From contig NC_009932.1 in NCBI RefSeq assembly GCF_000018105.1, positions 90,001 through 122,000 on the forward strand: a stretch of 32,000 nucleotides of DNA, written 5' to 3'. Below are positions 4,060-25,976 of the stretch, one piece after another; positions within the stretch are counted from its first letter, which is position 1; each line of letters starts with the position of its first letter. The position numbers and the translations under genes are program-made. This DNA is from Acaryochloris marina MBIC11017. Its GTDB lineage: Bacteria; Cyanobacteriota; Cyanobacteriia; Thermosynechococcales; Thermosynechococcaceae. The notes beneath the pieces are model-generated. The model was not told the origin of the DNA, ran no database searches, and saw only the letters and a program-made list of their open reading frames with translations.

Positions 4060-7000
4060 TTAATACGACTGCCCAATATCAAAATTGATTTGCTCACTCT
4101 GTAATGGCGTGGGCTTTTCTTTGACAATCTGCAACTTGACCCGATTCTGCACCATCTCAGGCATCCGCTGATTGAAGTTAATCGGCTTATCTGAGTCCAT
4201 TAGCTCCTCATAGATGGGTGAGACTTTGTGAATCGCCAATAAATACAGCCGTTTCTGTTCTGGGGTGGCCGCCCGCATATGATCTGACTCTGAGATGAAC
4301 CGATAAGCATCATTGAGTTCCGTATGTTCCTTACAGTAGGCGTAAACCTCCAGGTCAACCCGCTCCTTGGGCATCTCACCTAAGCGTTTCTGGACCCGCT
4401 TGGCAATAGAGTTGTACTGGCCTTTGTAATGACGCTTGACTTCAGCATCTGGGGAAATTGCATTAGCAATGGCGGCATTGTAATAGCGTGGTCCCACCTT
4501 AGCGATCACATCATCCAACCCCTTGCCTAACTTCGGATTCCACGGTGCCAGTTTGCAGACGACCCCCTCAGCTTGTAGCAGTTCAATGGTGCGGACCAAA
4601 TCACGACGCACATTGAAGATGGCCGATAGCTTAGTGTCCTGGTCAAACGCAAAGGTGATTTTTCGTCCCGGCTTAGCTAATGCTTTGCCATATTCCGATA
4701 ACTCTCGCTGGGGTAGGCGATGGTCGAAATCATCTTTGGCTCGATACAAAGCGGTGACCCCCGGTAATCCTACCGTTAGATGTCCCTGACTGAGGGATGC
4801 CCAGGTTTTTTTGAGTCCTTCCGTCAACACAATGGGTAGGTTGTACTGATCGGCCACATACCAAACCCCCTTGGCCCGCTCCTCTGGAGTCGGACTGATG
4901 GCATTACGCTGATAGATCAGCTCTGTAATTTCATCCGGGATATGGGGCAAGAATACCTGCTGGTCAACGCCTTTGGGTGTCTCGTATTTCACTTCCTCAC
5001 CATCAAAGATTCGGGGCGTCTTCGGCTTTACCTGGCAATAGGAAGACGGTTGTGGGTTCCCCTCGATGACGGAGAGTAAATCAGTCCCCCCATAGCCAAT
5101 CCATCCCCCTCCCTCAGCAATACGGGTATAGGCGCGTTCAGGATCATCGACCCATTTGCCATTAACCTTGTGAGTGCCATTGAGCTTTCGCTTCATCTCG
5201 TGGGTGACTTCTTGGCCTGCCCCATATTTCGGTTTGGTAAACTCAGCTCCGAGTAACGCCTCTAGCAAAACGTTGTCTCGGATTGATGGTTCAGAACTCC
5301 CTGCCTCACTTCTCAGATGCTCTGGGGTTAACAAGCTGGGATGAATGCCACTGCTCTTCATCTCGGCCCAGGTGTCCATGTCAAGCTGCCAAGGTTTCTC
5401 CACTCCCGTATAGTCAGGGGTCCAACCTTCATGGGGGTCGAATAGGGTCTCAATCGCATTCTCTTGGGCGTTGGAGGTGGCGACCCACTCTTTCAAGTCT
5501 TCTAGAGATTCTGTAAATACAGAGATATGTTTGGTCCGATGGCGCGAAATACCGACATAGAAAGACTCCCTAGCAGAAGTGGGATTGAGACTGGCAATGT
5601 AGATCGTCTCGGAATTGGTCCCGCCTTGTGCCCGGTAGGTCGTCGTGGCCCAATCATGGTCAATTTGCTGGGGCTTACTGAGATCGAGCTGATGCACTTG
5701 GCCTTTGTTGCCTTGAACCGTAGCAATCCCCTCTTGAATACGGATGCACTCTAAATAGGCATGGGTATAGATCCCTTCCTTTTTATTCGTTGAAGTGAAT
5801 CTGAGCTTATCTCCTACGGCAATATGATTTTGCTTTGCAGTGAAGACTTCAGTTCTTTCATGTTGAGCGGGATTAATCTTGAATTGCCTGCCCCCTGGTG
5901 ACGTAACTCGTAGATGTTGACCTTCAACTGCCAAGACTTTGTAAGGGACATGGGTTTGCAGTTGGGTATAGGTGCGGTGCTTACGATGGAGGACGAGTAA
6001 ATCGCCTTTGCGGTAGTTCTCCGCTCGTTTCTTCTGGACCTTCGTGAGATTGCGATTCTTGAGCTGTGTGAATTCAGTGTTGTTGGTCAGCTTCCCTTCT
6101 TCGATCAGTCGAACTCTGAGTTGATCCGTGAAGGCTTCTCTCTCGGCATTGGTCCCGATCACCACTAAGGTTTTATCTCGTCGGCTTTGGGGTAATGAAA
6201 TGTACTGCTTGACTGCCGCTGAGATTTTAGTGTCAGCATCTTCGACCTCATGGATATGCCCCTGTTTTTCGAGGACATTGAGCGCTTCAATGCCATGTCC
6301 TTCAGCGATGAGCTTTACTGCCGTTTTCTGTTCCTTGTTTTGTTGTCTGATGATTTCACTGAGCTTATGGACAGTGGCCCCGCTATGCATGAGCATTCGG
6401 ACGGGTGCGCCTGCGGCGATGGCTCCATTCTGTCCAGTATCTCCAACAGCCCAGACCCGAGCGCCCACTTTGGTTGCTTTATTCATGACCATCTCAAAGT
6501 CATCAGAGCCAACCATGCCTGATTCATCGAGTATCCAGAGTTGGTTGGATTCCGTCGTGGGTTCACTGACGGCCAGTTGAGCGATAGTTGCGCCTTCCAG
6601 GTCAAAGGATTCAGCAATCTCGTTCTTGGCATTGTGGGTGGCCGCAAAGACTTTGATGACGGTTTCAGGGGGGAGCTGCTGTCGTGCAATTCCTAATGCT
6701 GTGGTCTTGCCCGTACCTGCGAGTCCTTTAAGGATTTGGTACTGATCTGGTGAGCTGAGCAATCGCTTCATCGCTTCAGACTGACCACTATTGAGGATGG
6801 TATGGCTGAAGTCAGCGATAGGATTGAGGGGAGTAACGCTATTATTGCCCTTGAGCCAGTGGTTGATGATGCGGATATCTCGATCCACTGCGGTCTGGGT
6901 GGTGTATCGACCATCCCAGGCAGTAAGTAGATCTGGGTGGTGATCAATCTCCTGGTTTAGGGGCTTTTCATCAAAGCTGCGGAGGTGAGAAAAGACGAAG

Positions 7001-7989
7001 CGCTGAATGTCTTCAAGGCTAAAGCTGGACTGGCGTTCTGCTAGATGGCCGATAGCAGCGTCAAGTAATTCTCTGGGTGTTTCAGTGCTTTTTGGGGTGA
7101 TCGGGTGGTTGGCGGGAGTGAGACCCGTGAAGCCAACTGCTTCCATCTCATGGCCCCATCGCTCCTGCTTCTGTTCTAGACTTTCCGTGATGTTCTTAGC
7201 GATTCGGGTTTCAAAGACGGCTTTCTGTCTGTTCGCTGGAGTATTGCTCCAGCCCTTCTCTTTGAGATAGTCTTCGATTTCCGTAGAGCGCTTACTAAAT
7301 ACTTCAATCTGCTCATCCGTTACACCTGCTAAATCAAACCCCGTGGCCGTCTCCCGGATTTCATAGCCCAATGCTTGGACTTTAAGGGCTAGTTTCTGGT
7401 GGTAGAGGTCACCGAGGACGCCACTATTGCGGAGGGGTTCGTACCATAAGGCCCGATACTCTCCGTCTGGACAGAGAGTGCCATTAAACAGCACAACATG
7501 GGTATGGACATGGGGGTCACCTGCCCTGGATTCATGGTGATTAACCAGAGTGGCAGCGATGTTACCCGTTTTGATGGCTTGGCGCTTTCCATTGGCCTGG
7601 ACTCGTGCCCCGGCATATCGGTTCTCAACAATCACCATCACTTCTTTGACGGCTTCCACATGAGCCTCCCAAAGGCGCTTGTCTCCGTTGGGTCCATGGA
7701 TTGCCATACTCAAAGACTTTCCAGGAACGGTGAATGTGAGGTCATAGGCTAAGCGTTCTTTGCCTTTACCATTGACTTCGCCCCTCATGCGTTGGCCGTT
7801 GGGGAGATCACCGTAGAACATCTTTGTGAAGCGTTCAGCGGAATAAGGTTCATTGGGTGCCATGCTGCCGAACCATTCTGATTCCGTCATTTCTTGAACT
7901 TCTTCATCCTGGCTGTAGTAGCTTTCCTCTTTGGTGTAGTAGCGGGCACCGTCTTTGATGTTGGAGTTGATGGTGGTGATGTCTAGCAT
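4060..7989 (-). CDS. conjugative relaxase, MOBF/TrwC-TraI type, fused to a RecD/TraA-like helicase and a C-terminal Toprim-like (DUF3854-like) domain
   Basis: The N-terminus has paired Tyr motifs (GARYYTKEESYYSQ...EWFG) and the His-triad HHESRAGDPHVHTHVVLFNG. Walker A is GLAGTGKTT and Walker B-like is LWILDESGMV. The C-terminal part has LTEGLKK ... ITFAFDQDT (Toprim Glu and DxD). Confidence 0.93.
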   Translation of the reverse strand: MLDITTINSNIKDGARYYTKEESYYSQDEEVQEMTESEWFGSMAPNEPYSAERFTKMFYGDLPNGQRMRGEVNGKGKERLAYDLTFTVPGKSLSMAIHGPNGDKRLWEAHVEAVKEVMVIVENRYAGARVQANGKRQAIKTGNIAATLVNHHESRAGDPHVHTHVVLFNGTLCPDGEYRALWYEPLRNSGVLGDLYHQKLALKVQALGYEIRETATGFDLAGVTDEQIEVFSKRSTEIEDYLKEKGWSNTPANRQKAVFETRIAKNITESLEQKQERWGHEMEAVGFTGLTPANHPITPKSTETPRELLDAAIGHLAERQSSFSLEDIQRFVFSHLRSFDEKPLNQEIDHHPDLLTAWDGRYTTQTAVDRDIRIINHWLKGNNSVTPLNPIADFSHTILNSGQSEAMKRLLSSPDQYQILKGLAGTGKTTALGIARQQLPPETVIKVFAATHNAKNEIAESFDLEGATIAQLAVSEPTTESNQLWILDESGMVGSDDFEMVMNKATKVGARVWAVGDTGQNGAIAAGAPVRMLMHSGATVHKLSEIIRQQNKEQKTAVKLIAEGHGIEALNVLEKQGHIHEVEDADTKISAAVKQYISLPQSRRDKTLVVIGTNAEREAFTDQLRVRLIEEGKLTNNTEFTQLKNRNLTKVQKKRAENYRKGDLLVLHRKHRTYTQLQTHVPYKVLAVEGQHLRVTSPGGRQFKINPAQHERTEVFTAKQNHIAVGDKLRFTSTNKKEGIYTHAYLECIRIQEGIATVQGNKGQVHQLDLSKPQQIDHDWATTTYRAQGGTNSETIYIASLNPTSARESFYVGISRHRTKHISVFTESLEDLKEWVATSNAQENAIETLFDPHEGWTPDYTGVEKPWQLDMDTWAEMKSSGIHPSLLTPEHLRSEAGSSEPSIRDNVLLEALLGAEFTKPKYGAGQEVTHEMKRKLNGTHKVNGKWVDDPERAYTRIAEGGGWIGYGGTDLLSVIEGNPQPSSYCQVKPKTPRIFDGEEVKYETPKGVDQQVFLPHIPDEITELIYQRNAISPTPEERAKGVWYVADQYNLPIVLTEGLKKTWASLSQGHLTVGLPGVTALYRAKDDFDHRLPQRELSEYGKALAKPGRKITFAFDQDTKLSAIFNVRRDLVRTIELLQAEGVVCKLAPWNPKLGKGLDDVIAKVGPRYYNAAIANAISPDAEVKRHYKGQYNSIAKRVQKRLGEMPKERVDLEVYAYCKEHTELNDAYRFISESDHMRAATPEQKRLYLLAIHKVSPIYEELMDSDKPINFNQRMPEMVQNRVKLQIVKEKPTPLQSEQINFDIGQSY

Positions 7990-8189
7990 TACCCTATTCC
8001 CAGAAATGGAGGTTCCGAGTAGAGGATAGGCAGATTGTTATGTGAGGGCCAAATGCTTGGAAGACATACAATCAACGACTAGCCAGATTGAGTAGTTCGT
8101 CTTTTTGACGAGAGCTATCAGCCCATCCAAGAAGATATTGGCTTAGGGTTATGCTGGTCGATAATGGAAATTTCTTTGGCTGAAAATCG

Positions 8190-10454: not shown

Positions 10455-10630
10455 CTACTAAACGCAAAACTTAAGGCTTTGAATTATTACTTGGCTCTGG
10501 CTCCACCTCCATTCTGGCTGACTGTTGAGCTAGACTGCTGGATTACGAAGGAAGCGATCCCCTTTGGATATTCAGCAAGATTTTTCTAGAGTGTTTGGGA
10601 TAGATTCCACCAAAGTCAACAGAAAAATCT

Positions 10631-10725
10631 TGTAGTACAAAAGTTTCAGATGCACTACAACTCTGTAGTGTAAAAGTTTCAAACGTGTGACAGTTTTGTA
10701 GTCAAAATACTGCAAACGTGCTACA
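10631..10725. repeat. three 29-bp palindrome-ended repeats at exactly 33-bp spacing (candidate centromere or operator upstream of parM)
   Basis: The units are TGTAGTACAAAAGTTTCAGATGCACTACA (10631-10659), TGTAGTGTAAAAGTTTCAAACGTGTGACA (10664-10692) and TGTAGTCAAAATACTGCAAACGTGCTACA (10697-10725). Each has a TGTAG...CTACA-type inverted end. Confidence 0.65.
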
Positions 10726-10872
10726 AAAAACTGAAGTAAAAAATCCCACTGCAAAATTATGCAGCCCCAAGTAGTGGCGAATAGGTGTATCCAGGTGGGA
10801 CTCCCCCTCAGACGTCCTTCAGCAACCTCTTGAACCCGTGCGCAGCGTGGGATTTGGCCGTTGGCGAGCAGC

Positions 10873-10912
10873 TCGACTGTAATCAACTGTATTCGACTGT
10901 AACTGACTGTAG
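10873..10912. repeat. four helically phased 10-bp iterons (ACTGTA core), candidate parC-type centromere
   Basis: The iterons are TCGACTGTAA TCAACTGTAT TCGACTGTAA CTGACTGTAG. The ACTGTA cores start at 10876, 10886, 10896 and 10906. The array lies 87 bp upstream of the parM-like start. Confidence 0.65.
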
Positions 10913-10937
10913 AAAACCGTAAAAAAACCGGGTTTTT

Positions 10938-11001
10938 GGTTTGCACCTCAGAGGTCATTCTGCCTACGTTTCTTGGGTAGGTCTCAGAGGACAAAAAAAT
11001 G
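10938..11001 (+). promoter_or_regulatory. conserved leader/operator-like block upstream of parM-like gene (copy 2 of 836..899)
   Basis: It sits at the same distance from the ATG as copy 1. It contains the inverted repeat CCTAC-N9-GTAGG (10963-10981) and possible -35/-10 hexamers TTGCAC / TACGTT. Confidence 0.5.
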
Positions 11002-12054
11002 GTTTACACCTTGACCGTTGCCGCTGACATGGGCTCAAGTTTGGGCAAGGGTTGCTACACGATTGATAAAGGGCCACCGAACGATGCCGAGGGATTCGTG
11101 GGCGGATTCCAGCGGGACACTCCTCGCAAAGGCTGGATTACTCAAGCCAATGCCGTTGACGAGGAAAAGCACCGGGACTTAACCCCAGATAGTTGCACCA
11201 TTGAAGTCAGAGGTAAAGCGTGGACCGTGGGTGAATCAGCCCGATACGCCCTCCATGAAACTCGTGTCAGAGCAGCCAAATCTAACACCGCATCCATCCG
11301 GGTCTTAGGAATGCTCGGCAAGATTATTGAACAAGAAGACTTCACTGAGGGCAGTTTGGATCTGCGGGTGTTGCTGCCCGTGGGCGAAAGGAAAACATTT
11401 AAGCAACTCGAAGCCAACCTGACGAAAGCCCTCTATGAAGTCAGACTCAATGGCGTTAAACCCAGCTTGCGGATTAATCGAGTGCGGGTTTATCCAGAAG
11501 GGGCGGGGGTTGCTCAACGGGTCACCGTCCCTGATGCCCTGGTGCTGATGTTTGGTCATAAAGACATCTCCATCGTGCCCGTGAGGAATCAAGTGATTCA
11601 AGCTCATGCCTGTCAGACCATTACGGGTATGGGCATGATTGCCCTGATTAATGAGTTTCCCTGCTACATCAATGATGAATTGCTTTTAGCTGAGTTCTTA
11701 CACTTAGAAGCCGTGGGCAAGGGGGGACTCAAGCGGCTCGTGGGTGAAGACAGCCTAGAGAAAGCTCGCATGAACTTTGAGCAGGCCAAGAAACGGACTT
11801 GGCGACGCATCCTGCAACAACTCATGCTAGAACCCAAGGTCAACACCGTGTCCAAAATCTATGTGACGGGTGGCTCGATGCGAGTCTGGTTGCCAGAGCT
11901 AAAAGCAATCTTTGGGGGTCGTCTAGCCTTTTTTGCTGACTCTTTGAAGTCGATGATTGCCGCCTATCCCGATATGCAAGAACCCAAGAACAAGGAAATC
12001 AAACCCCGGTTCACCGATTCATTCTTGCTGATGGAGGGTGCAACCCATGGGTAG
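10999..12054 (+). CDS. parM: ParM/StbA-like actin-fold plasmid segregation ATPase
   Basis: Actin-fold motifs are present: AADMGSSLGKG (phosphate-1, DxGxxxxK), VYPEGAGVAQ, and IYVTGGSMRVW (adenosine/GGG-like). The size is 351 aa. Iterons lie upstream and a small overlapping gene lies downstream. Confidence 0.7.
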   Translation: MVYTLTVAADMGSSLGKGCYTIDKGPPNDAEGFVGGFQRDTPRKGWITQANAVDEEKHRDLTPDSCTIEVRGKAWTVGESARYALHETRVRAAKSNTASIRVLGMLGKIIEQEDFTEGSLDLRVLLPVGERKTFKQLEANLTKALYEVRLNGVKPSLRINRVRVYPEGAGVAQRVTVPDALVLMFGHKDISIVPVRNQVIQAHACQTITGMGMIALINEFPCYINDELLLAEFLHLEAVGKGGLKRLVGEDSLEKARMNFEQAKKRTWRRILQQLMLEPKVNTVSKIYVTGGSMRVWLPELKAIFGGRLAFFADSLKSMIAAYPDMQEPKNKEIKPRFTDSFLLMEGATHG

Positions 12055-12460
12055 ACGGACAATGAAGATTCAGCTCCAGTACCCAGACCAATCCCTCAAT
12101 GGTCGGAGGTTAGAAGCCTTGCGAGGCTACTTTGGCGACAACTTGGAGCGGGTGATGATTCAAGCGATGTGGTCCGTTGTGGGGCCACTTGGATCAACCT
12201 TGGCTGACTTGCCAGAGAAAGAGGTTCAAGGTCATATCAATAGCGGCAAACTCACCATTAAAGGCTTTCACCAAGAAGCCTTGGACATGATCGGGGGTGG
12301 GGGAGTTACTCCTGAAGTGACCCCAGAGGTAACTGAAAAAGTGCCCCCAGCAGTTACCTCTGAAGTGACCCAGGAACAACCACCGTCTGCTGCCCAGGAA
12401 TCCGTTTATTCAGCATCTCCCCCAGAACAAAGCGGCGATCCACTGAACAATTTATTCTGA
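12038..12460 (+). CDS. candidate ParR-like centromere-binding adaptor (RHH-like N-terminus, repetitive P/E/V/T linker)
   Basis: It overlaps the parM-like stop by 17 nt; alternative starts are at 12047 and 12062. The N-terminus KIQLQYP..RRLEALRGYFGDNLERVMIQAMW fits a strand-helix-helix layout. The linker reads GGGGVTPEVTPEVTEKVPPAVTSEVTQE. The call rests mainly on position. Confidence 0.45.
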   Translation: MQPMGRRTMKIQLQYPDQSLNGRRLEALRGYFGDNLERVMIQAMWSVVGPLGSTLADLPEKEVQGHINSGKLTIKGFHQEALDMIGGGGVTPEVTPEVTEKVPPAVTSEVTQEQPPSAAQESVYSASPPEQSGDPLNNLF

Positions 12461-12523
12461 TTTGCTGCTGACGATGCAATCTGCCTATGTTCCCATTAAC
12501 GCTATTTAAAGAAGGACAACGAC

Positions 12524-13488: not shown

Positions 13489-13495
13489 TTTCGGG

Positions 13496-13597
13496 GGTGA
13501 TGTTGGGGATTGTGGTTGTTGCGATGGTCGAAGACCGCCCTTCGGGCATCGCAAACTCCAATACCAATCCCTGACATCACACCTACTAATTCACTCA
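13496..13597 (+). repeat. intergenic cassette copy C: long imperfect hairpin plus box 1
   Basis: The 5' arm GGTGATGTTGGGGATTGTGGTTGTTGCGATG pairs with the 3' arm CATCGCAAACTCCAATACCAATCCCTGACATCAC, with an apical GCCC-TTC-GGGC mini-hairpin. CACCTACTAATTCACTCA follows at 13580-13597. Confidence 0.65.
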
Positions 13598-13622
13598 GTC
13601 TTTCAACTTTTCAAAATCTCTA

Positions 13623-13786
13623 TGGATTTTGTGTTACCTATCTGATTCCCCACCTATCTACTCAATACCAATGCTCTAACTTTTCATTTTCTTTGTGGAT
13701 TTTGTATTACCTATCTGATTCCCCACCTATCTACTCAATACCAATGCTCTAACTTTTCATTTTCTTTGTGGATTTTGTATTACCTA
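13623..13786 (+). repeat. 73-bp tandem direct repeat, 2.25 copies
   Basis: The unit is TGGATTTTGT[G/A]TTACCTATCTGATTCCCCACCTATCTACTCAATACCAATGCTCTAACTTTTCATTTTCTTTG. Units start at 13623, 13696 and 13769. Copies 1 and 2 differ at one visible position, and the third copy is truncated at about 13786. Confidence 0.9.
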
Positions 13787-13803
13787 ACTATAGGGACTCA
13801 GCT

Positions 13804-13890
13804 ATGAAAGTAACTCTAGACCAACCAGAACAAGAACTTGAAACCATCGCCCGAATGCTGACGGAAAACTACATTATGGAGGTTATCTAA
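13804..13890 (+). CDS. micro-ORF, 28 aa, acidic (MKVTLDQPEQELETIARMLTENYIMEVI)
   Basis: Hand translation. GGGA lies about 9 nt upstream. Its stop overlaps the start of the next micro-ORF (TAATG). Confidence 0.35.
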   Translation: MKVTLDQPEQELETIARMLTENYIMEVI

Positions 13891-14000
13891 TGAAAGGCCG
13901 TCTGATTGTTCTTCTGATCCTGATTACCCCCTTACTGATCCTCGCAGGCTCCATTGGTTGGGTCTTAGGGATTAGTGCCTGGATTTTGATACTGAAGTGA
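13890..14000 (+). CDS. micro-ORF, 36 aa, single-TM hydrophobic peptide (MKGRLIVLLILITPLLILAGSIGWVLGISAWILILK)
   Basis: Hand translation. Its ATG overlaps the TAA of the upstream micro-ORF. It has a basic N-terminus, a 30-residue hydrophobic core and a terminal Lys. Confidence 0.4.
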   Translation: MKGRLIVLLILITPLLILAGSIGWVLGISAWILILK

Positions 14001-14058
14001 GGTACTCCCATTCCCTCAGCGACCAAGCCACTTGATCAGGGTTGAAGGCACCCTAGCA

Positions 14059-14174
14059 TTTCATTTTCCAGGCAGATTCTGTATTGCCTAGATGTGATGA
14101 CATACGGTTGGTCGCAGACCATCGCAACTCCAATACCCATCTCCAATACCAACCTCCAGACTTCACACCTAACC
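14059..14174 (+). repeat. intergenic cassette copy D (box 2 first, then duplicated CCAATACC arm, then a box 1-like sequence)
   Basis: TTTCATTTTCCAGGCAGATTCTGTATTGCCTA lies at 14059-14090. ATCGCAACTCCAATACCC and ATCTCCAATACCAACC lie at 14121-14154. CACACCTAACC lies at 14164-14174. Confidence 0.5.
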
Positions 14175-14253
14175 AAATAAAACGACCCCTTAGCTCTTCC
14201 AGTCCAAGAGGTCGTTACCAATCCTTTCCCTAAATTATAACGAGGTCACCAGC

Positions 14254-14478
14254 ATGACGACTAACCCCTATTTTGGCCACTTCGAGCAAGCCTGGATAGA
14301 CCACCAGACCGACTACGGCCAGCACCCAGATCCATGCAAGGAATTCCCACCAGACCAGATCCTAGACCGGGTTGCGTCCTGGTTGAGTGAGTTCAATCCG
14401 CTGATACCACCTGAGTCTCAGCTATCTAAGGCTATCCGGGTGGGCATTGTCCACCGATTTTATGGGTGGCAGCTATGA
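14254..14478 (+). CDS. hypothetical protein, 74 aa
   Basis: ORF with GAGG upstream. Its stop overlaps the next gene's ATG (ATGA at 14475-14478), which suggests translational coupling. Confidence 0.5.
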   Translation: MTTNPYFGHFEQAWIDHQTDYGQHPDPCKEFPPDQILDRVASWLSEFNPLIPPESQLSKAIRVGIVHRFYGWQL

Positions 14479-15380
14479 CAAATACTCAAAACCATGATGA
14501 ATCTCCGGGTTGGGAGTGGGAGAGTTTAGCGATTGCATGTTTTATTGTCATCGCCATCTCAACCCTGGTAGGACTCATCGCTTTACCTAAAAAAGAAAGA
14601 GAAAACCTTTCTTGGTCCTTTTGGGCACTTACGATTCCATTTACGATATCTTTTTCTGTGGTTGGGTGCTGGTTGTTGAAACCTCGCGAAGGTTGTCCCC
14701 TGGAAGATAAAAAGCCCAACAGTGTAACTGGCAATTCTGAAGCCAGACGAGGGGCCAGAGCTGACGATCCGCAGGTGCATACTCATGCCATTCTGGATAC
14801 CTCGTTTGATGAAAAGCTTGCTATCGTCACCAAAGATGTAGCTGAAATCGCTCAACGAGTGGGAGCGCTGGACATGGCTCTAGTAAAGCGGGTCAGGCCA
14901 TTACAGACTAAAGCTACAACAGTAAGGGAAAAAGAACAGCAAGCTAGAACTGCCCTAATTGCAAGGCTGAGTGATTTGGGTACGGAGACTAGCCCCATAG
15001 ATGCTTTGCAGGGGGCTATCCAGATTTGCTCCGATGCTCGGCTGTGGGAGCATCCAGCAAGGATTGCAACAGTTCACATTGACACACAGCGGTTTTACAA
15101 CGAGGGGAAGATCTGGCCCACTATTCGAGACAATCATATCGTTTGGAGTCTTGACCCTGATCATGATCCACCAGACGAAACAGATGAAATTGAGCAAACG
15201 CTTTTCCGTCCCTTTCGTTGCTGCTCCCGGTGCAAATATATTGGCAAGTATTACGATTGCTGCGCGGTTGTGCCCTTCGATTGTGGCACGGGTAACCCAT
15301 CTGAGCAATGCCGGGAATTTGAGTGTGAGGACGGTGGTACTCCAATTCCTGAGCTAACGATTGATGACGTGCCGTTTTGA
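14475..15380 (+). CDS. hypothetical membrane protein: two N-terminal TM helices, a relaxase His-triad-like patch, and a Cys-rich C-terminal module
   Basis: The TM helices are LAIACFIVIAISTLVGLIAL and FWALTIPFTISFSVVGCWLL. The patch is EARRGARADDPQVHTHAILD. Nine Cys occur in CCSRCKYIGKYYDCCAVVPFDCGTGNPSEQCREFEC. The ORF track starts at GTG 14466, but ATG 14475 is coupled to the upstream stop. Confidence 0.6.
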   Translation: MTNTQNHDESPGWEWESLAIACFIVIAISTLVGLIALPKKERENLSWSFWALTIPFTISFSVVGCWLLKPREGCPLEDKKPNSVTGNSEARRGARADDPQVHTHAILDTSFDEKLAIVTKDVAEIAQRVGALDMALVKRVRPLQTKATTVREKEQQARTALIARLSDLGTETSPIDALQGAIQICSDARLWEHPARIATVHIDTQRFYNEGKIWPTIRDNHIVWSLDPDHDPPDETDEIEQTLFRPFRCCSRCKYIGKYYDCCAVVPFDCGTGNPSEQCREFECEDGGTPIPELTIDDVPF

Positions 15381-15458
15381 GTATTGGGGTTCGTACTGTG
15401 GCAATGAAATCGCAAACTCCAATACCAACTCCCGACATTGCACCTATTAATGCATCCA
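15381..15458 (+). repeat. intergenic cassette copy A: hairpin plus box 1
   Basis: GTATTGGGGTT (15381-15391) pairs with AACTCCAATAC (15415-15425). CACCTATTAATGCATCCA lies at 15441-15458. The cassette begins 1 nt after the stop of the upstream gene. Confidence 0.6.
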
Positions 15459-15519
15459 ATCTCTAACTTTCTGTTTTTCGACGAATAAAGTAAATCTTGC
15501 AAACTTACAGGTCAAATCA

Positions 15520-16062
15520 ATGCCATTACTAAACATACATTATCGAACAACGCTCGACCCTCTCACTGACCCCGACCATGCAGAAAAAGCCCTTAACGAA
15601 ATTAAGAAGTTCTGGGTCCTAAACGTACAATCTGATTTAGACAGTATCGAGACTGCATTTAAAGAAGAATTTCCCACTTACAAAATTTTTCTGCCTGATG
15701 TAGACCATTTGAAGCTTGCTCACCCGATCCCCGAGAAAAAAACGTTAGAGTACCAAAACTCTTTCGAGTACATCTCTAAGAATTATCTGGAGACTTACAC
15801 CGATACATACGACAAAAGCGAGTATCCTGATTTAATCCCTTGGGATGAGCAGTTTGCTTGGGACGGTAGTTATAACAGGAAGCCAGTAACCCATCCCCTT
15901 CATAAATACCCCCAGTGGGATAAGCTAGCCCTTTTAGTCGATGACGAGGAAGGCAAGGCTAACGATATATTTTTGAGAGGTCTTTTTGAGCAGGTGCTCC
16001 CCTGTTTAGATGATGAGGGTAATCCGCAATTTAAGGGTGATGACTACCATATTCTAGGGTAA
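15520..16062 (+). CDS. hypothetical, strongly acidic protein, 180 aa
   Basis: ORF with many D/E and few K/R residues. No motif recognised. Confidence 0.5.
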   Translation: MPLLNIHYRTTLDPLTDPDHAEKALNEIKKFWVLNVQSDLDSIETAFKEEFPTYKIFLPDVDHLKLAHPIPEKKTLEYQNSFEYISKNYLETYTDTYDKSEYPDLIPWDEQFAWDGSYNRKPVTHPLHKYPQWDKLALLVDDEEGKANDIFLRGLFEQVLPCLDDEGNPQFKGDDYHILG

Positions 16063-16149
16063 GGCCCAAGAGTGAGAGGGTTGTCTCTCACCAGGATTTT
16101 GAACCCTTGGCAAATGTGGTCTTTGTAATATCAAAGCTATATCTCTGGT

Positions 16150-16276
16150 GATGTGCCGTTTTGAGTGTGAGTTATTGGTATTGGGGTTTGCGATCGCACT
16201 CCAAAACCAATTCCCGATATCGTACCTATTAATTCACTCAAGTTTTTAGATTCCCTGTGGATTTTGTATTACCTAT
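16150..16276 (+). repeat. intergenic cassette copy B (orphan): gene-tail relic, HIP1-centred hairpin, box 1 and box 2
   Basis: GATGTGCCGTTTTGAGT (16150-16166) duplicates the 3' end of ORF 14475..15380. In ATTGGTATTGGGGTTTGCGATCGCACTCCAAAACCAAT the octamer GCGATCGC lies at 16190-16197. TACCTATTAATTCACTCA lies at 16223-16240 and CTGTGGATTTTGTATTACCTAT at 16255-16276. Confidence 0.7.
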
Positions 16277-16571
16277 ATCTGGAGACTGAACCAGGTCAGC
16301 AAAAACTATAAACCTGGATCGACTCTTCGGCTCTCTCAATCTCGCCAACACCATCCTTAACGGTGATTTCTCTGGGTTTGAGCTAGGCATCTTTTGCACA
16401 TGCAATTGCAGGCAGGTATTACTGTTAGCAGGTTTCCAAATAGATGAGGTAGAAAATGTTCGTGGAATACTTAAGCCTTTGAGTTGTCAATCCTCCAGCA
16501 TGAATAGCTCAAACAAGGTACACAACAAGGTAGTCTCTTTGGCAGGGTGTTGTGCTGGCCAAGGTTGAAGA

Positions 16572-16958
16572 TTGATGGAAGTCGTCCACCATTTGCAAGG
16601 CAACTTGGAAATCATCGTATCTTTTTTAGAAGTGGTACTGGAAACAGTAGCGGCTTTTTGCATTGTGTTGGGCCTGCTCGTGAGCATCAAGCTCTCAGTT
16701 GCTCTGCGCCGCCGTCGCAATAGTATTCAATTCCCCCTGGGGCGATTGAGGTTAACCTTTGGCCGATGGTTGGCGTTAGCCCTTGAGTTTCAATTGGGGG
16801 CAGATGTCTTAGCCACAACCGTAGCCCCAACGTTTGAGGCGTTAGGGAAACTGGGTGCTATCGCCATCATTCGTACCTTTCTCAACTACTTTCTGAACAA
16901 AGAGCTGATCGAGGTCTTTGAGATGCAAAAACACTTAGATGAAGACGAGACTAATTGA
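16572..16958 (+). CDS. small integral membrane protein, 128 aa; resembles the DUF1622 family from memory (unverified)
   Basis: There are hydrophobic helices and the motif ALALEFQLGADVLATTV...IAIIRTFLNYFL. The start is TTG 16572 or ATG 16575. Confidence 0.5.
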   Translation: MMEVVHHLQGNLEIIVSFLEVVLETVAAFCIVLGLLVSIKLSVALRRRRNSIQFPLGRLRLTFGRWLALALEFQLGADVLATTVAPTFEALGKLGAIAIIRTFLNYFLNKELIEVFEMQKHLDEDETN

Positions 16959-17290
16959 TCCAACTCCGATTAATAAGACCTGGATGCTAGATGGATAATT
17001 CAAAATTCGTAAGGATAGTTCAGAATCGTTGTTTTAGGAGGGCCACGATACCCCAAACAGCGATAATCCCATGCTTGAAATGCTGCTTAGGAAGCTCTGC
17101 AATCCTTCTGATGAAATACCGTTGAATGATTTTGAAGCTCTAAAATCTCAGATTCTGCAGGGGATTTATGTTGCCTAATACATCGTCAAGACTGAATTTT
17201 AGGGTGAGAATCTCTGGTAAGTCTTATTATGAAAGCCTTCTGAAGATTGTCTACCCTAATTTTTTAGCTTGACGCTGCACTGAGTAAAAT

Positions 17291-17387
17291 TTTCGAGGTT
17301 CGGGATTAGGGCTGGTATTCGGAAATGAGATCGCAACTCACGATTAAGCCTTATCTTTCATTTTCTCGATAGAATTCATATTGCCTA
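17291..17387 (+). repeat. intergenic cassette copy E (degenerate arm plus box 2), upstream of the kinase-like gene
   Basis: TTTCGAGGTTCGGGATTAGGGCTGGTATTCGG...GATCGCAACTC is followed by CTTTCATTTTCTCGATAGAATTCATATTGCCTA (17355-17387). The GGTTCGGGATTAGGG stretch resembles the 3' end of ORF 22409..22651. Confidence 0.45.
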
Positions 17388-19939: not shown

Positions 19940-20383
19940 ATGCGACTATTCATCCGCCGCTTTGCTTTATTAACCTTAGTAGTAGCAAGTTGTTTAAGTT
20001 TGATGGGTTGGTTACAACCTGTTAGTGCTCTGGATATCCAAGGGCAATCCAACTCACCAGGTCTCCTGGCTGCTGCTTACCGTAATCCCGTAGATGCCAA
20101 ACTCGAAACGGACTATGGCCAAAAAATCGACTTGAATAATACGAATGTCATTGCCTTTAGCCAATATAAGGGACTTTATCCCACTATTGCGGGTAAAGTG
20201 GTTCAGAATGCACCCTATAGCAGTGTAGAAGAAGTATTAAATATTGATGGTTTAACTGAACCTCAAAAGAAATTGTTGCAGCAGCACATGGGTGACTTTA
20301 CGGTAACTGACCCAGATCCAGCTTTAGTCGGAGGTCAAGACCGCTATAACACAGGGGCTTATTACCCTGTCCGTCGTTCCTAA
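19940..20383 (+). CDS. psbU: photosystem II 12-kDa extrinsic protein PsbU precursor
   Basis: A signal peptide ([30 protein letters not shown]) is followed by the hallmark PsbU sequence [63 protein letters not shown]...FTVT...LVGGQDRYN. Confidence 0.9.
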
Positions 20384-20388
20384 GTTCT

Positions 20389-20426
20389 CTATAGGGATGG
20401 AATATGCTGCGATTCCATCCCTATAG
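20389..20426 (+). terminator. perfect 15-bp hairpin just after psbU (terminator or RNA-stabilising stem-loop; no T-run)
   Basis: CTATAGGGATGGAAT (20389-20403), an 8-nt loop, then ATTCCATCCCTATAG (20412-20426). Confidence 0.5.
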
Positions 20427-20528
20427 CGGCAAGGCCATGAACATTAAGAAGTAGTTTATAAGTCAGTCAATCCCAGGCTTGAAATAACTGATTTAACCCT
20501 TTGTGTCCAACAATTGGGTCCATCCACC

Positions 20529-21731
20529 ATGAAAAATTTTTTGGGCCAACTTTGGAATTCAATCTTCCATCGATTCACCTTATTGGTTGTCGGTATTATT
20601 TTTTCCTGGGGTGTCATGTCGATGGGCTGGCTAAACAATGATGTAGGAATTGGCTGGGCTGCTCTGCCTCAAGGGGATGCGTTCACTAATCCCATGAGTA
20701 TATTGAGGCTTGCTTTGCCTGTTGATAGCCAAGCTATTCATACTATTCATCAATATCTAGAAGAGATGCCACCTCAACTAGATGATCCCACAGCGCGGAT
20801 GCAACCCAAACAATGGTCTGAGGTGGGAAATCAGATATCAAAAGCAATTAAAACGTTTAATCGAGAAGCTTCAGACCTTCTTTCTGATATTCCCACTCCC
20901 TATCGGCCTCAAGCTTTAGTCCGCATGAATCAAATCAACGCAGCACTAGCCGATCTCAAAATATTGTCTGACGAGCAAAGTAAAGACCTATTCGTAGCTA
21001 AACGAACACAGGCTTGGAACTCTATCGATTTGTTAGCGGCTTCTATGGTGCCAGAATATTCTGTCAACATACCCGAGGACTATCAAACGCTACCGCAGCT
21101 CAATGGTCGAGCAGTTGTTGCCCTCGACACTAGCAAGGGACCCATCACTATCATGGTGGATGGCTATAACGCTCCAATCACCGCTGGTAATTTCCTAGAT
21201 CTTGTTCAGCGAGAGTTCTACGATGACCTCACGTTTACTCGTGAAGATGAGGCTTATGTGGTACAGACGGGGAATCCAGAAGGTCCCCAAGCGGGATTTA
21301 TTGATCCTGATACAGGGCAATATCGCTCTATTCCTTTGGAGGTAATGGTCAAAGGGGACTCTGAAGCTGTTTATGGGGCTACTTTAGAAGAGCTAGGTTT
21401 ATCGTTGTCTGAACCAGTCCTTCCTTTTTCTGCCTATGGGACTGTCGCCATGGGACATCCACAGGGCGACCCTAACGGTGGCTCGTCTCAATTTTTCTTT
21501 CACTTGTTTGAGCCTGATTTGACTCCTGCTGGATTAAACCTTCTAGATGGCCGCTACGCTGTTTTTGGATACGTGATTGCGGGCCAAGAGGTCTTAGCTC
21601 AATTACAGCAAGGTGACCTTCTACGTTCAGCTAAGGTGGTTGATATCTCTCCACCAAACGCCTTCACTTTCCGGTATCTAGATTGGATCCTTGTTCAAAG
21701 ACTTAGTAGCAGTTTAAAGGGCATGGCTTGA
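20529..21731 (+). CDS. cyclophilin-type peptidyl-prolyl isomerase with an N-terminal anchor/signal and helical domain (TLP40/CYP38-like lumenal PPIase)
   Basis: The C-terminal cyclophilin motifs are GRAVVALDTSKGPITIMVDGYNAPITAGNFLDLV...FYDDLTF.R...YVVQTGNP...GTVAMGHP..DPNGGSSQFFF...LDGRYAVFGYV. The N-terminal hydrophobic segment is FTLLVVGIIFSWGVMSMGW. ATG 20529 is preferred over the track's TTG 20514. Confidence 0.85.
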   Translation: MKNFLGQLWNSIFHRFTLLVVGIIFSWGVMSMGWLNNDVGIGWAALPQGDAFTNPMSILRLALPVDSQAIHTIHQYLEEMPPQLDDPTARMQPKQWSEVGNQISKAIKTFNREASDLLSDIPTPYRPQALVRMNQINAALADLKILSDEQSKDLFVAKRTQAWNSIDLLAASMVPEYSVNIPEDYQTLPQLNGRAVVALDTSKGPITIMVDGYNAPITAGNFLDLVQREFYDDLTFTREDEAYVVQTGNPEGPQAGFIDPDTGQYRSIPLEVMVKGDSEAVYGATLEELGLSLSEPVLPFSAYGTVAMGHPQGDPNGGSSQFFFHLFEPDLTPAGLNLLDGRYAVFGYVIAGQEVLAQLQQGDLLRSAKVVDISPPNAFTFRYLDWILVQRLSSSLKGMA

Positions 21732-22408: not shown

Positions 22409-22651
22409 ATGCATTTCAGGGTATGGATAGAGACAATGAGTGGACATAAAACGAAACCCCTATCCCCTTTATTTAAGGCTCAGCGCTTTAAACCAGAGGG
22501 GGACGAACCCCGAACGGCTCAGGTGACGTTCAGACTGGATCAGCGGCTCAAGGATGCCATTGTGGAGCACGTGGATAATCAGTCTGAGTGGATGCGGATG
22601 GTCCTTGCCCAAGCGGCGAAAGAACAAGGGTGGTTACGGGATTGGGATTAG
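22409..22651 (+). CDS. ribbon-helix-helix (CopG/Arc-like) DNA-binding protein candidate
   Basis: The C-terminal half AQVTFRLDQRLKDAIVEHVDNQSEWMRMVLAQAAKE fits a strand-helix-helix layout. An internal ATG at 22436 is an alternative start. It is followed directly by a half copy of the intergenic cassette. Confidence 0.5.
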   Translation: MHFRVWIETMSGHKTKPLSPLFKAQRFKPEGDEPRTAQVTFRLDQRLKDAIVEHVDNQSEWMRMVLAQAAKEQGWLRDWD

Positions 22652-22683
22652 GGTGTTTTTGGGGTGGAGTTGGCTGCGATCGG
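22652..22683 (+). repeat. intergenic cassette copy F (5' arm only)
   Basis: GGTGTTTTTGGGGTGGAGTTGGCTGCGATCGG starts immediately after the stop at 22651. The 3' arm and both boxes are absent. The IS21-family element lies about 100-280 bp downstream (its left end is unresolved). Confidence 0.4.
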
Positions 22684-23091: not shown

Positions 23092-24828
23092 GTGCCTAAC
23101 AAAAGAATTGATTCCTATCATACTCGTGTTTATATGAACGGAAGAGACCTCGGCTTGAAACAAGCTGATGCAGCTTACATTGCCGAAATATCTACAAGAA
23201 CCGGACAACGAATTGAGGCCGGCACCCATCAACCTAATCGCGGCCGCCTTCAGGACCAACGCACCGTTCCCGACCCCTTAGCTGATGTGTGGGAAGACGA
23301 GCTAGAACCAATGCTGCGTCGAGACCCACGCCTCAAACCCATGACCCTGTATGAGTACCTGCAGGATAAGTATCCAGGCCAGTATCCCCAAGTCCTGCGG
23401 ACCCTACAACGTCGGGTGAGAACGTGGAAAGCCTTACATGGACCAAGCCCTGAAGTGATGTTTGAATTGCGTCATGAACCCGGGGTACAAGGGTTTTCCG
23501 ACTTTACAGAACTCAAGGGCATCACGATTACCATTGCCGGCAAACCCTTTGAGCACCTGATTTACCATTACCGTCTGGGATACAGCGGCTGGCGATATGC
23601 CCAGATCATCGAAGGAGGCGAAAGCTTTGTCGCCCTCTCAGAAGGATTGCAAAATGCCTTTGCAGCCTGTGGAGGTGTTCCTACACAGCATCGTACTGAT
23701 AGTTTGAGTGCAGCCTATCGCAACATGGGCGGCCGCCGGTCCAAAAACCTCACTCGTCTGTACGACGAACTGTGTGACCACTATCGGCTAGAACCCACTC
23801 GTAACAACAAAGGTGTAGCCCATGAGAATGGCTCCATTGAATCTCCCCATGGTCATCTGAAGAACCGAATTAAGCAGGCGATCTATCTGCGCGGCAGTGC
23901 AGATTTTACGAGCGTTGCTGAGTATCAAGCCTTAATTGATGCACAGGTTGCCAAGTTGAATCAGCAGTGCCAAACCAAGTATGAGCAAGAGAAAGACCAT
24001 CTACAACCACTGCCCAAATATCGAACCCCTGACTATGAAGTGCTCACGGCTAAAGTCAGCAAACGCAGCACCATCGATGTTCGCTGCATTCTATACACCG
24101 TCCCTTCTCGACTGATTGGTCGTCAATTGGAACTGCATCTATACCATGACCGGATTGTCGGCTATCTGGAGCGACACCCGGTGGTGGAATTGCCGAGGAA
24201 GCGCGTCAGTGGCAAAGGCAAACGTCGCGACCGTTGCATCAACTATCGCCATGTTATTGGTTCAATGCGATTGAAGCCTCGTGCTTTTATCTATTGCACC
24301 TGGCAATCAGACCTACTTCCCAATCCTGAATACCGCCAAATCTGGGAACAGCTCAAAGCCCAATTTGACCTGGAGCAGGCTGCCAAGATCATCGTGGAAG
24401 CCCTGTATATTGCTGCGGTTCAAGATAAAGAACAGGCCGTAGCAGTGTACTTACAGCAGCAGCTTCGCTCATCCAGCCTTACCCTCAATCGCCTGAAAAA
24501 ACAGTTTGAGCCGCCTCAGATGAAGCAGGTTCCTGAACTCAGCATTGAACAACATTCACTTGAACTTTATGACAAACTCCTCCCCTCCTGCTCAGTCCCC
24601 GCTGAGCCCCTACCAGCACCTGAGCCTCTATTTAAAAAAGCTCAGGCTCTCCCACATGTTGACCCATTGGGAATCTATCGAATCCCAAGCCATGCAGGAA
24701 AACTGGTCTTATGCGGAATTCTTACTAGCCTTGTGCGAAACGGAGGCCCAACGAAGAGAACAAGCTCGTCTAAAACGTGCCCTCACCGAAGCCAGGCTCC
24801 CAAACGCAAAAAGTTTTACCAACTTTGA
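23092..24828 (+). CDS. istA: IS21-family transposase IstA (HTH plus DDE/rve core)
   Basis: It has an integrase-core-like region (...FSDFTEL...HRTDSLSAAYRN...NKGVAHENGSIESPHGHLK) and the IstA-typical C-terminal ...LELYDKLL. The ORF then stays open for about 75 more codons, overlapping istB. Confidence 0.8.
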   Translation: MPNKRIDSYHTRVYMNGRDLGLKQADAAYIAEISTRTGQRIEAGTHQPNRGRLQDQRTVPDPLADVWEDELEPMLRRDPRLKPMTLYEYLQDKYPGQYPQVLRTLQRRVRTWKALHGPSPEVMFELRHEPGVQGFSDFTELKGITITIAGKPFEHLIYHYRLGYSGWRYAQIIEGGESFVALSEGLQNAFAACGGVPTQHRTDSLSAAYRNMGGRRSKNLTRLYDELCDHYRLEPTRNNKGVAHENGSIESPHGHLKNRIKQAIYLRGSADFTSVAEYQALIDAQVAKLNQQCQTKYEQEKDHLQPLPKYRTPDYEVLTAKVSKRSTIDVRCILYTVPSRLIGRQLELHLYHDRIVGYLERHPVVELPRKRVSGKGKRRDRCINYRHVIGSMRLKPRAFIYCTWQSDLLPNPEYRQIWEQLKAQFDLEQAAKIIVEALYIAAVQDKEQAVAVYLQQQLRSSSLTLNRLKKQFEPPQMKQVPELSIEQHSLELYDKLLPSCSVPAEPLPAPEPLFKKAQALPHVDPLGIYRIPSHAGKLVLCGILTSLVRNGGPTKRTSSSKTCPHRSQAPKRKKFYQL

Positions 24829-25387: not shown

Positions 25388-25976
25388 TCGAGCGATCACT
25401 GGTTGTCATTTCGATCACGGGTTGTCGTTTTGTTCTGAAGGTATCGTATGAGGTCTGAAAAAGAGCTAACGCAAAGGGAGTGTACGCCAAATAATACGGT
25501 TCAAATTTGGGGGTTGATCCGCCTTGTGGTTGTCGCGACATCGCCTATGGGGTTGACATCCAATATCAGATAGTTGAACCAGGAGTCACCGCGCAGAATA
25601 CGATAATCATCTGAGATAATCTACCCTTGCTTATTGACGGCGATGACTTCATCTGAGCGCATAGTCAAGAGCTTGCAAGAATTTAAAAACATCACCAACA
25701 TAAGCACTGTCATCCTCGTGAATTCGGAGAGCAATTCCTTAGGATATTTCAGTCGTTCTAAGCATTGAGAGAATGTGATTACTCAAGCAGGGCTGATACC
25801 ACGATAAGGTCATTATTTACTAATATCAAGGAATTTAGGAATTTTTAGGTCAATATCTGTTGTGAGATTGAGGGTTCGCTTCTGGGTTGAGATCGAAAAA
25901 CCATTCTTTAACAGGTGCAATGAAATCTTGGATACAACCTCCACAATGCAGCTATGTTTTGTAAAATAGATTCCAA

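Follow-up and report, generated by a model that had tools for sequence, protein, structure and literature searches.

The KorA and KorB operators of the IncP plasmid RK2, the omega heptads of pSM19035 and the repressor network of R388 all place one short site at many backbone promoters, and such global operator networks result in plasmid-wide negative control with a burst of expression upon entry into a new host. Mycobacteriophage stoperators are asymmetric 13-bp repressor sites that lack promoter hexamers and number ~30 per genome. The IncN plasmids pKM101 and R46 carry, in their leading/maintenance region, the conserved upstream repeat (CUP) regulon, in which operons of the same orientation lie beside the stb operon and each is headed by a repeat (Delver and Belogurov 1997, as described in PMC5371602 and PMC6289460). 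The CUP repeat contains a promoter (-35 and -10) and an ArdK site, and recombination between CUP repeats gives deletions, inversions and rearrangements (PMC5371602, PMC6289460). Here we describe a repeat family, for which the CUP regulon appears to be the closest analogue, in a 32,000-nt window of an Acaryochloris plasmid (A. marina MBIC11017, NC_009932.1, positions 90,001 to 122,000; window coordinates are counted from the first nucleotide of this stretch). The best explanation, to which we assign a probability of roughly 0.6, is a lineage-specific and recombination-prone module of Acaryochloris MOBF plasmids that combines a terminator-like hairpin with a promoter/operator and heads small genes downstream of the partition (par) operon.

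The initial annotation of the window had listed six copies (A to F), all in the same orientation, of an intergenic cassette built from an imperfect hairpin centred on a HIP1 octamer and two conserved boxes. The parts do recur as described. The 3' arm ATCGCAAACTCCAATACC has 3 matches in the window versus 0.02 expected, Box 1 has 3 (at 13580, 15441 and 16223) versus 0.29, and the Box 2 core has 5, every one on the + strand, versus 0.08. The composite TTTCA-N16-TRTATTRCCTA matches the window 7 times, again only on the + strand, with 0.12 matches expected. A repeat search of the window recovers the same families, including a 73-nt tandem array at 13605-13786. The repeats are real, and their frequency far exceeds chance. 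A seventh Box 2, at 17161-17177, had been missed, and the Box 2 of copy A is degenerate.

The tally of copies had to be revised. Copies A, B and C are full members of the family, with profile E-values from 4e-14 to 1e-21, and two extra tandem units of copy C score 1.6e-4 each. Copies D and E are decayed and partial, the profile E-values of their Box 2 parts being 0.003-0.08. ‘Half copy’ F is a non-member, since it has no match to the family profile at E<=10 and its fold (z +0.20) is equalled by 111 of 200 shuffled sequences.

For comparison we used, along with the window, seven related plasmid regions (L002-L008), which share a gene order: mobF, a divergent ParM operon closing with genes of 229 aa and 78-88 aa, and a zone of small genes. 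In this set an nhmmer search with the profile made from copies A, B and C finds 19 copies at E<1e-4. All the full copies are co-oriented with the par operon of their own plasmid. BLAST searches of the cassettes against 72,556 PLSDB plasmids return Acaryochloris records only; a 5-kb query spanning the module likewise matches Acaryochloris plasmids only, with plasmid unnamed15 of A. marina S15 (88% identity, typed MOBF/MPF_T) on top. Copies are also present in L009, a contig of a metagenome-assembled genome from another Acaryochloris species-level lineage and the single contig found in a search of genome contigs with the 229-aa neighbour protein. A scan of metagenome contigs with the Box 1...Box 2 pattern produced two AT-rich chance matches only. 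The main text of a published comparison of Acaryochloris plasmids makes no mention of promoters or sequence repeats.

The copies are 70-90% identical to each other. The aligned block starts with a variable hairpin whose apex is TGCGATCGCA, or that site split by an insert of 24-60 nt, and continues downstream of the hairpin as AAC-TYRATACCAA-YTCCCYGAYATCACACCTATTAATTCA-CCCAGTCTTTCAA-YYTTTCARATTCTC-N5-GGATTYTGTATTRCCTAG. Two parts can be separated: a long imperfect HIP1-apexed hairpin with Box 1, and a unit of ~73 nt that ends in Box 2. The possibility that the conserved block is a coding sequence was ruled out by stops in all frames and by indels of 1-2 nt between copies. In Rfam the window has no match at the gathering threshold and chance-level ones only at E<=5, and a tRNA scan of the window found none. 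The module is apparently undescribed, but of a familiar kind, and specific to one plasmid lineage.

A family with these features could be taken for a non-autonomous element resembling miniature inverted-repeat transposable elements (MITEs), with the arms as terminal inverted repeats and an outward promoter as in Correia elements. Inverted-repeat arms, intergenic location and a promoter-like end are indeed all present. Yet the 5' boundary cannot be aligned between copies, there is no target-site duplication, and the conserved block is one-sided, extending ~90 nt from the palindrome; moreover, the copies are not near-identical, as their range of identity shows, and they keep to one zone (7 kb of the 80 kb scanned in plasmid pMB08). 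We consider such an element very unlikely.

The promoter/operator reading comes from Box 2. Its 43 distinct sites give a 45-nt consensus, TTTCA-n-ATTCT-n-TA-n-GGATTYTRTATTRCCTAG, which reads as a sigma-70-like promoter with a -35-like nTTTCA, a 16-nt spacer and TRTATT as the -10 hexamer. The position of the sites was assessed in a census of 34 sites with <=2 mismatches from five annotated loci. Although 69-78% of the DNA is coding, 29 of the 34 sites are intergenic, and 20 of the 34 are followed by an annotated gene of the same orientation, usually at a distance of 17-113 nt. Several of the remaining sites precede small open reading frames (ORFs) that are conserved but unannotated and have a Shine-Dalgarno motif at 17 nt downstream. 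Over all 43 sites, 16 have an ORF with such a motif <=130 nt downstream, as against 4 in the opposite direction. Outside the cassette zone, Box 2 occurs alone and on either strand in other plasmids, with a gene ahead on that strand; in three plasmids such stand-alone sites are situated 40 nt upstream of a MoxR-type ATPase gene and 67-83 nt upstream of the divergent gene. What had been described as strand specificity thus arises because the sites follow gene orientation, and a strand-specific signal is not upheld.

The unit from Box 1 to Box 2 (~73 nt) is frequently present in two to three tandem copies, and the terminal CCTAG is often part of a palindrome, TTACCTAGGTAA. Strong conservation of the spacer and of CCTAG is unexpected for a bare promoter, which suggests that a protein-binding site, an operator, overlaps the Box 2 promoter. 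Proteins of the sigma-70 and AbrB families and HU proteins are plasmid-encoded (L005 20049-20786; L003 14784-15590; L007 13092-13916; L013 30234-31520 and 40604-42304), and one of them could recognise this promoter class. Some Box 2 copies are aimed into the 3' end of a convergent higA gene of the HigBA toxin-antitoxin type (L004 2561-2577 and 15278-15294; L005 25455-25471; L008 22490-22506); these could drive antisense transcripts.

The sequence of Box 2 also bears on a proposal of the initial annotation that the cassettes are secondary relaxase sites. The string GTATTGCCTA resembles the core of the R388 nick region, GTATTGTCT/A, so that Box 2 would be a nick site and its copies secondary origins of transfer (oriT). 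This is hardly credible, even though copy D fits 9 of 10 positions of the R388 core and the string GTATTGTCT does occur in papers on the R388 nic site: the sites number >40, are found on both strands, keep fixed distances to the start codons that follow them, and are kilobases away from the relaxase gene. A MOBF oriT consists of an inverted repeat (IR2) with a single-stranded nic core behind it (PMC4176350); a single functional site per plasmid, located at the relaxase operon, is expected. This defining inverted repeat is absent from all copies but one, a 7-bp inverted repeat being found just 5' of the first C unit only.

As to the hairpin, most copies fold to a long stem of -25 to -54 kcal/mol (folded over 119-121 nt), the overall range being -16 to -54. 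Of the copies said to contain the imperfect hairpin, C folds well (-39.9 kcal/mol, z -4.12, none of 200 shuffles as good), while A (-16.6 kcal/mol, z -2.25) and B (-15.8 kcal/mol, z -1.72) fold moderately; D (z -1.37), E and F do not form it. The HIP1 octamer reported at the apex of copy B is intact. The hairpins lie at the 3' ends of genes: after the 88-aa gene, in the window and in three related plasmids, the hairpin starts -1 to 6 nt past the stop codon, and the clear cases overall give 0-6 nt; automated measurement of this distance is confounded in several copies by spurious outer pairs. Copies C and A begin at the stop codon or no more than 3 nt from it, and neither is followed by a T-run, in line with the initial annotation. 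A stable G+C-containing stem-loop ending the presumed transcription unit, as expected of a terminator, is in place. A consensus terminator scan, whose rules exclude long interrupted stems, found none at the cassettes. In plasmid pMB03 a perfect copy of the hairpin follows a stop codon and has no Box 2 behind it; the hairpin is thus separable from the promoter part.

Since Box 2 is intergenic, co-oriented with genes and close to their starts and the hairpin is at gene 3' ends, the first of the roles suggested originally, a terminator or stabiliser joined to a promoter/operator of a regulon, is favoured and is the best supported. It has to be narrowed in one respect: in pMB08 (80 kb scanned out of 89.7 kb) every site is within 12-19 kb, and a regulon whose sites are confined to a 7-kb zone is local and not plasmid-wide.

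Several observations speak against this interpretation. On the promoter side, the -10 hexamer fits the consensus at 4-5 of 6 positions and the -35 hexamer is weak (3-4 of 6), and a consensus promoter scan, whose rules exclude TGTATT, reports nothing at the boxes. No annotated co-oriented gene is found downstream of 14 of the 34 census sites, several of which point towards convergent genes, higA for example. No family of regulators was recognised among the small proteins of the neighbourhood (ArdK itself was not searched for by sequence), and a literature search for mapped transcript starts or ends on these plasmids found none. On the hairpin side, there is no U-tract 3' of the stem; its place is taken by the A/T-rich Box 1 sequence CC(A/T)A(Y)TAATTCA. 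RNAalifold applied to a MAFFT alignment of 14 copies returns 0 consensus pairs. Pairing is observed in 78.5% and 75.3% of cells in two hand-named registers, versus 34-58% in slid controls, and shuffling of columns reaches the observed values in 49 and 39 of 500 trials, with unexceptional covariation measures. The + strand folds better than its complement in only 8 of 15 copies. Finally, D and E would, if functional at all, have to act without a hairpin.

The arms consist of short G/T-rich and C/A-rich repeats whose pairing register varies between copies. Since column shuffles match the pairing, the complementarity of the arms, which is real, is explained by common descent, and covariation beyond chance, the check proposed at the outset, did not materialise. 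The mismatches had been described as mostly of the type that pairs as G.U in + strand RNA. Among the non-Watson-Crick cells of the two registers G.T (19 and 30) does exceed A.C (9 and 13) by ~2:1, but other mismatches are also numerous; the description is only partly true, and the argument for RNA-level structure is weak.

Hairpins that all point the same way might instead function as single-stranded DNA in conjugation, namely as ssi-type priming sites on the incoming + strand, possibly for the DUF3854 domain of the relaxase. The premise is that oriT lies just upstream of the relaxase gene, in which case the + strand would be transferred with the hairpins 5-9 kb from the nick. All 17 of 17 hairpin copies are on the coding strand of the par operon, which is the predicted transferred strand, but the adjacent genes are invariably encoded on this strand too, which explains the orientation without conjugation; besides, 4 of 34 Box 2 sites are on the other strand, and finding 0 of 17 hairpins there is not significant (~0.12 by our own estimate). 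Where mismatches are biased, G.T falls on the predicted transferred strand; DUF3854 is Toprim-like; and the zone is situated between the relaxase/par region and ArdC-type establishment genes. Set against these points are the location of the hairpins exactly at stop codons and the fact that the oriT position and the transferred strand are only predicted. We regard priming in conjugation as rather unlikely. A broader idea, that the hairpins are not transcription signals but single-strand DNA structures of conjugation or recombination (for Toprim-like priming or as hairpin-directed sites), would make the par-side zone with its portable promoter a gene-capture platform of cyanobacterial megaplasmids; this, too, we see as unlikely. 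A Frpo-type single-strand promoter was rejected, with the hexamers 40-70 nt outside the stem and the adjacent genes on the hairpin's own strand.

Comparison with relatives reveals rearrangements at the modules. In assemblies 99.8% identical to 15380-16279, hairpin B is followed by a tandem pair of promoter units and the start, MPAKTVNLDRLFG..., is intact, whereas the window has lost one unit and the ATG. With respect to S15 p15, where there is a single hairpin, the 180-aa gene separates the 5' arm of hairpin A from the 3' arm of hairpin B. Relics ending in ..DVPF* stem from internal deletions within genes of the 301-aa type; L005 is an example, and there the same tail precedes the cassettes L005_15733 and L005_25386. 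Copy B had been called an orphan with such a relic; the 21-nt relic is there, but B does have a gene behind it, a decayed homologue of a 123-aa gene. S15 p15 has a copy with unrelated flanking genes whose cassette core is 87.8% identical to that of copy C. The imprecise junctions indicate homologous and illegitimate recombination between long repeats, not site-specific cassette exchange.

The same data bear on an integron-like alternative, in which the HIP1-apexed hairpin is the target of a site-specific or hairpin-directed recombinase and the zone a platform for cassettes. The small genes between cassettes do differ among plasmids, the 180-aa gene does lie between two hairpins where S15 p15 has one, and a citation seen in a reference list (Akiyama 1998) ties HIP1-type palindromes to plasmid recombination in Synechococcus PCC 7002. 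However, GTTRRRY/RYYYAAC cores are absent from hairpins A, B and C, and the scanned window ORFs next to the zone include no integrase domain. The junctions (coding-tail relics, internal gene deletions, a replaced gene middle) are imprecise, and the 5' and 3' arms of A, and those of B, each match their own type with no apex crossover visible. We find this alternative quite doubtful. The MITE-like or cassette-shuffling element of the initial annotation accordingly fails on defined ends, target duplications and core sites.

The rearrangements could also mean that the family is functionless paralogous DNA, i.e. what is left after a single ancestral intergenic region and the adjoining gene ends underwent segmental duplication and recombination between plasmids. 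Gene-tail relics accompanying the hairpin, every state of decay (D, E and the Box 2 of A), gain and loss of tandem units and the lack of significant covariation would all follow. Drift of this kind is nevertheless difficult to reconcile with a 45-nt Box 2 consensus kept at 43 sites, including non-homologous contexts, both strands and the L009 lineage, with the maintained position relative to start codons, or with the conservation of the copy C core in S15 p15 despite its unrelated neighbours, and we judge it improbable.

We thus favour a module of terminator-like hairpin and promoter/operator, which may work as follows. The first part (hairpin and Box 1) would belong to the 3' end of the upstream gene, whose transcript would end in an imperfect stem-loop of 30-80 nt followed by A/U-rich CCUAUUAAUUCA. 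The hairpin may be a transcript-end, insulator or stabiliser structure; it might terminate weakly or, once the A/U-rich tract has been cleaved, block 3' exonucleases. The second part, the ~73-nt unit, would be the promoter of the next gene, with transcription starting at or just after CCTAG, and the invariant spacer (ATTCT..TA.GGAWT) together with CCTAG would be the operator of a shared plasmid regulator. One regulon would then comprise the small genes that follow the par operon, along with a few further backbone operons. Being long, similar and co-oriented, the modules are also substrates for homologous recombination, through which tandem promoter units vary in number and intervening genes are gained, lost or truncated. 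The features of the window are listed in Table 1.

Table 1. Repeat copies and associated features in the window
Feature	Position	Strand	Description
MobF relaxase gene	4060-7989	-	TrwC + AAA_30 + DUF3854 by domain scan
ParM-like gene	10999-12054	+	
Hairpin C	13491-13574	+	long imperfect stem-loop, 3 nt past stop codon 13486-13488 of the 88-aa gene; 3' arm continues into GACATCAC
Palindromic insert	13521-13552	+	GCGATGGTCGAAGACCGCCCTTCGGGCATCGC, 32 nt; splits the HIP1 site at the apex of hairpin C; separate small dispersed element
Copy C core	13548-13597	+	3' arm ATCGCAAACTCCAATACCAA, linker TCCCTGACAT, Box 1 CACACCTACTAATTCA
Copy C promoter/operator unit 1 (putative)	13600-13640	+	-35-like TTTCA 13609-13613; -10-like TGTGTT 13630-13635; Box 2 13624-13640
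Two more tandem 73-nt units of C	13644-13786	+	each with Box 1-like CACCTATCTACTCA, then Box 2 (13697-13713; 13770-13786)
Two overlapping unannotated small ORFs	13804-14000	+	28 aa (MKVTLDQPEQELETIARM...) and hydrophobic 36-aa peptide, joined by TAATG stop-start overlap
Copy D promoter/operator part (putative)	14058-14090	+	TTTCA 14059-14063; Box 2 AGATTCTGTATTGCCTA 14074-14090; E 0.0034
Copy D hairpin remnant	14111-14171	+	apex-insert remnant; 3' arm ATCGCAACTCCAATACC, partly duplicated; degenerate Box 1 CACACCTAACCAAAT; E 0.17
Hairpin A	15378-15427	+	begins in the stop codon of the 301-aa gene; apex HIP1 mutated to GAAATCGC
Copy A Box 1 and promoter unit (putative)	15439-15492	+	Box 1 TGCACCTATTAATGCA; degenerate unit with CGACGAATAAAGTAAATC where Box 2 is expected; profile positions 1-84, E 4e-14
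Gene-tail relic (..DVPF*)	16146-16166	+	3' end of a 301-aa-type gene without the gene; 21 nt, 90% identical to 15362-15382
Hairpin B	16174-16211	+	apex HIP1 intact, GCGATCGC at 16190-16197
Copy B Box 1 and one promoter/operator unit (putative)	16221-16275	+	Box 2 16259-16275; E 7e-18
Decayed 123-aa gene headed by copy B	16276-17177	+	MTVNLDRLFGSLNLANT... family; ATG changed to AGG; middle replaced by 662 nt
DUF1622 membrane-protein gene	16572-16958		within the 662-nt replacement of the 123-aa gene
Terminal Box 2 variant	17161-17177	+	GGGATTTATGTTGCCTA; overlaps the 123-aa gene tail; profile match 17141-17177, E 0.18
Copy E	17291-17387	+	5'-arm remnant (homologous to L002_31857); truncated ATCGCAACTCA; intact promoter/operator unit (putative), Box 2 AGAATTCATATTGCCTA 17371-17387; E 0.076
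‘Half copy F’	22652-22683	+	G/T-rich tract with GCGATCGG; not in the family

The most elaborate copy is C. The repeat search gives its tandem units identities of 92% and 100%. In the last unit the -35-like hexamer is TTTTCA (13754-13759) and the -10-like hexamer TGTATT (13776-13781), 22 nt short of the ATG at 13804; the Shine-Dalgarno motif AGGGA stands in front of this ATG. The two small ORFs that begin there are kept behind tandem promoters, with a good Shine-Dalgarno motif, in S15 p15 and pMB04; these ORFs, whose products have no family match, are putatively driven by the C promoters. A 36-nt copy of the palindromic insert, 100% identical, occurs in an unrelated intergenic spot of L002, an S15 plasmid (19565-19600), and further copies of the element (GCGATGGYCGAAGRCCGC...CATCGC) are found within HIP1 sites at hairpin apexes (L002 36666, L004 15409, L005 14901, L007 16927). 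The insert has the appearance of a tiny dispersed insertion element with HIP1 as its target.

Copy D has its order reversed, with Box 2 first, and has lost the 5' arm; its hairpin remnant is orthologous to a segment after the complete hairpin of pMB03 (L007), and its Box 2 part is 163 nt upstream of a pair of genes of 74 aa and 301 aa. In the degenerate unit of copy A, TAAAGT is a possible -10, 28 nt upstream of the 180-aa gene. This gene has an ordinary-looking terminator of its own at 16070-16100 (stem GTGAGAG/CTCTCAC, then CAGGATTTTG), unlike the family hairpin, which is consistent with later insertion of the gene. The terminal Box 2 variant that overlaps the tail of the 123-aa gene is kept in L002, L003, L004 and L008. 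Copy E has lost the 3' arm and Box 1; the next gene downstream, 237 nt away, is the kinase gene at 17625. The 80-aa ORF that precedes ‘half copy F’ is followed immediately by four G-runs at 22640-22672 (GGGATTGGGATTAGGGTGTTTTTGGGG), a motif of the G-quadruplex type on the coding strand; G-runs also abound in the 5' arms of the family hairpins.

On the + strand beyond the relaxase gene the order of genes is a Ser/Thr kinase gene, the ParM-like gene and genes of 140 aa, 229 aa and 88 aa, the last three without family. The repeat zone adjoins the 88-aa gene, and beyond the zone are a second kinase gene, copies of psbU and of a CYP38-like isomerase gene, and insertion sequences. In L002-L008 the small-gene zone consists of poorly annotated genes on the same strand, followed by ArdC-like and HigBA genes on the opposite strand, among which a gene for a sigma-70-family protein is also found in some of these regions. 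Pfam, NCBIfam and PADLOC searches assigned no family to the proteins of the flanked genes, and a sequence search of the PDB with the 229-aa family had no match.

Just upstream of the relaxase gene, at 7990-8060, an inverted repeat CCTATTCC...GGATAGG is followed by CAGATTGTTATG, a layout resembling IR2 and ATTGTCT/AT of the R388 nick region; judging by this resemblance, the stretch is a more plausible oriT than Box 2. It has a 72% inverted match to 12460-12488. The region upstream of the ParM-like gene (10560-10920) contains a 23-nt inverted repeat at 10576-10632, three repeats of ~27 nt of the form TGTAGT..AAAAGTTTCA.A.G at approximately 10623-10720 and three 10-bp direct repeats, TCGACTGTAA/TCAACTGTAT, at 10873-10912; these are candidates for the centromere (parC) and/or for accessory oriT sites. 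The plasmid copies of psbU, for the photosystem II extrinsic protein, and of the CYP38-like peptidyl-prolyl isomerase gene (19940-21731) are located between the regulatory zone and three insertion sequences, which are an IS21-like element with istA/istB (23092-25387), a DDE_Tnp_1 element with 30-nt bounding inverted repeats (25965-27294) and an IS1-like element with perfect 20-nt inverted repeats (28592-29486).

Acaryochloris genomes have up to nine or more large plasmids, which make a sizeable share of the genome. Long repeated modules such as those described here may help explain the mosaic gene content of co-resident plasmids. The module predicts a co-regulated set of small genes beside the partition genes and the ArdC-type establishment genes, a shared 45-nt promoter/operator would be a handle for fishing out the regulator, and the unit could offer a compact native promoter for genetic tools in Acaryochloris.

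Among known systems, integron attC sites and MITEs such as Correia elements are similar in that imperfect hairpins follow variable small-gene ORFs and that the repeat can supply a promoter; unlike them, the Acaryochloris module has no attC cores, integrase, target duplications or sharp ends, and its junctions are imprecise. Intrinsic terminators and repetitive extragenic palindromic (REP)-type 3' stem-loops also form a stable stem-loop on the transcribed strand, just past the stop codon and between genes that run the same way. Here, however, the stem is followed by CCUAUUAAUU and not by a U-tract, the stems are long, interrupted and variable in register, and the copies are not genome-wide. Stoperators share with Box 2 an asymmetric conserved site in short intergenic gaps that is co-oriented with transcription, whereas the Acaryochloris site overlaps promoter-like sequence and is confined to one zone. 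The global operator networks of plasmids use short sites in otherwise unrelated promoters, while in our case a whole promoter region of 45-90 nt is homologous.

The CUP regulon differs in that the Acaryochloris host is a cyanobacterium and that the Acaryochloris unit is coupled to a long hairpin at the stop codon, often with two to three tandem promoter copies. No ArdK homologue was recognised in the family scans, which did not include a sequence search aimed at ArdK, and the cassettes have no sequence similarity to CUP repeats (the PLSDB matches being restricted to Acaryochloris); for this last reason the Acaryochloris module is not a CUP member, and we take it to be analogous rather than homologous. 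The likeness in layout is considerable. In both cases repeats head same-orientation operons of small genes, and these operons adjoin the stability operon of a conjugative plasmid of the MOBF/MPF_T type; each unit combines -35 and -10 elements, putative in Acaryochloris, with a conserved, putative repressor site, ArdC-type establishment genes are close by and the repeats mediate rearrangements. By this analogy, cyanobacterial MOBF plasmids seem to have their own, independent counterpart of the conserved upstream repeat layout known from IncN plasmids.

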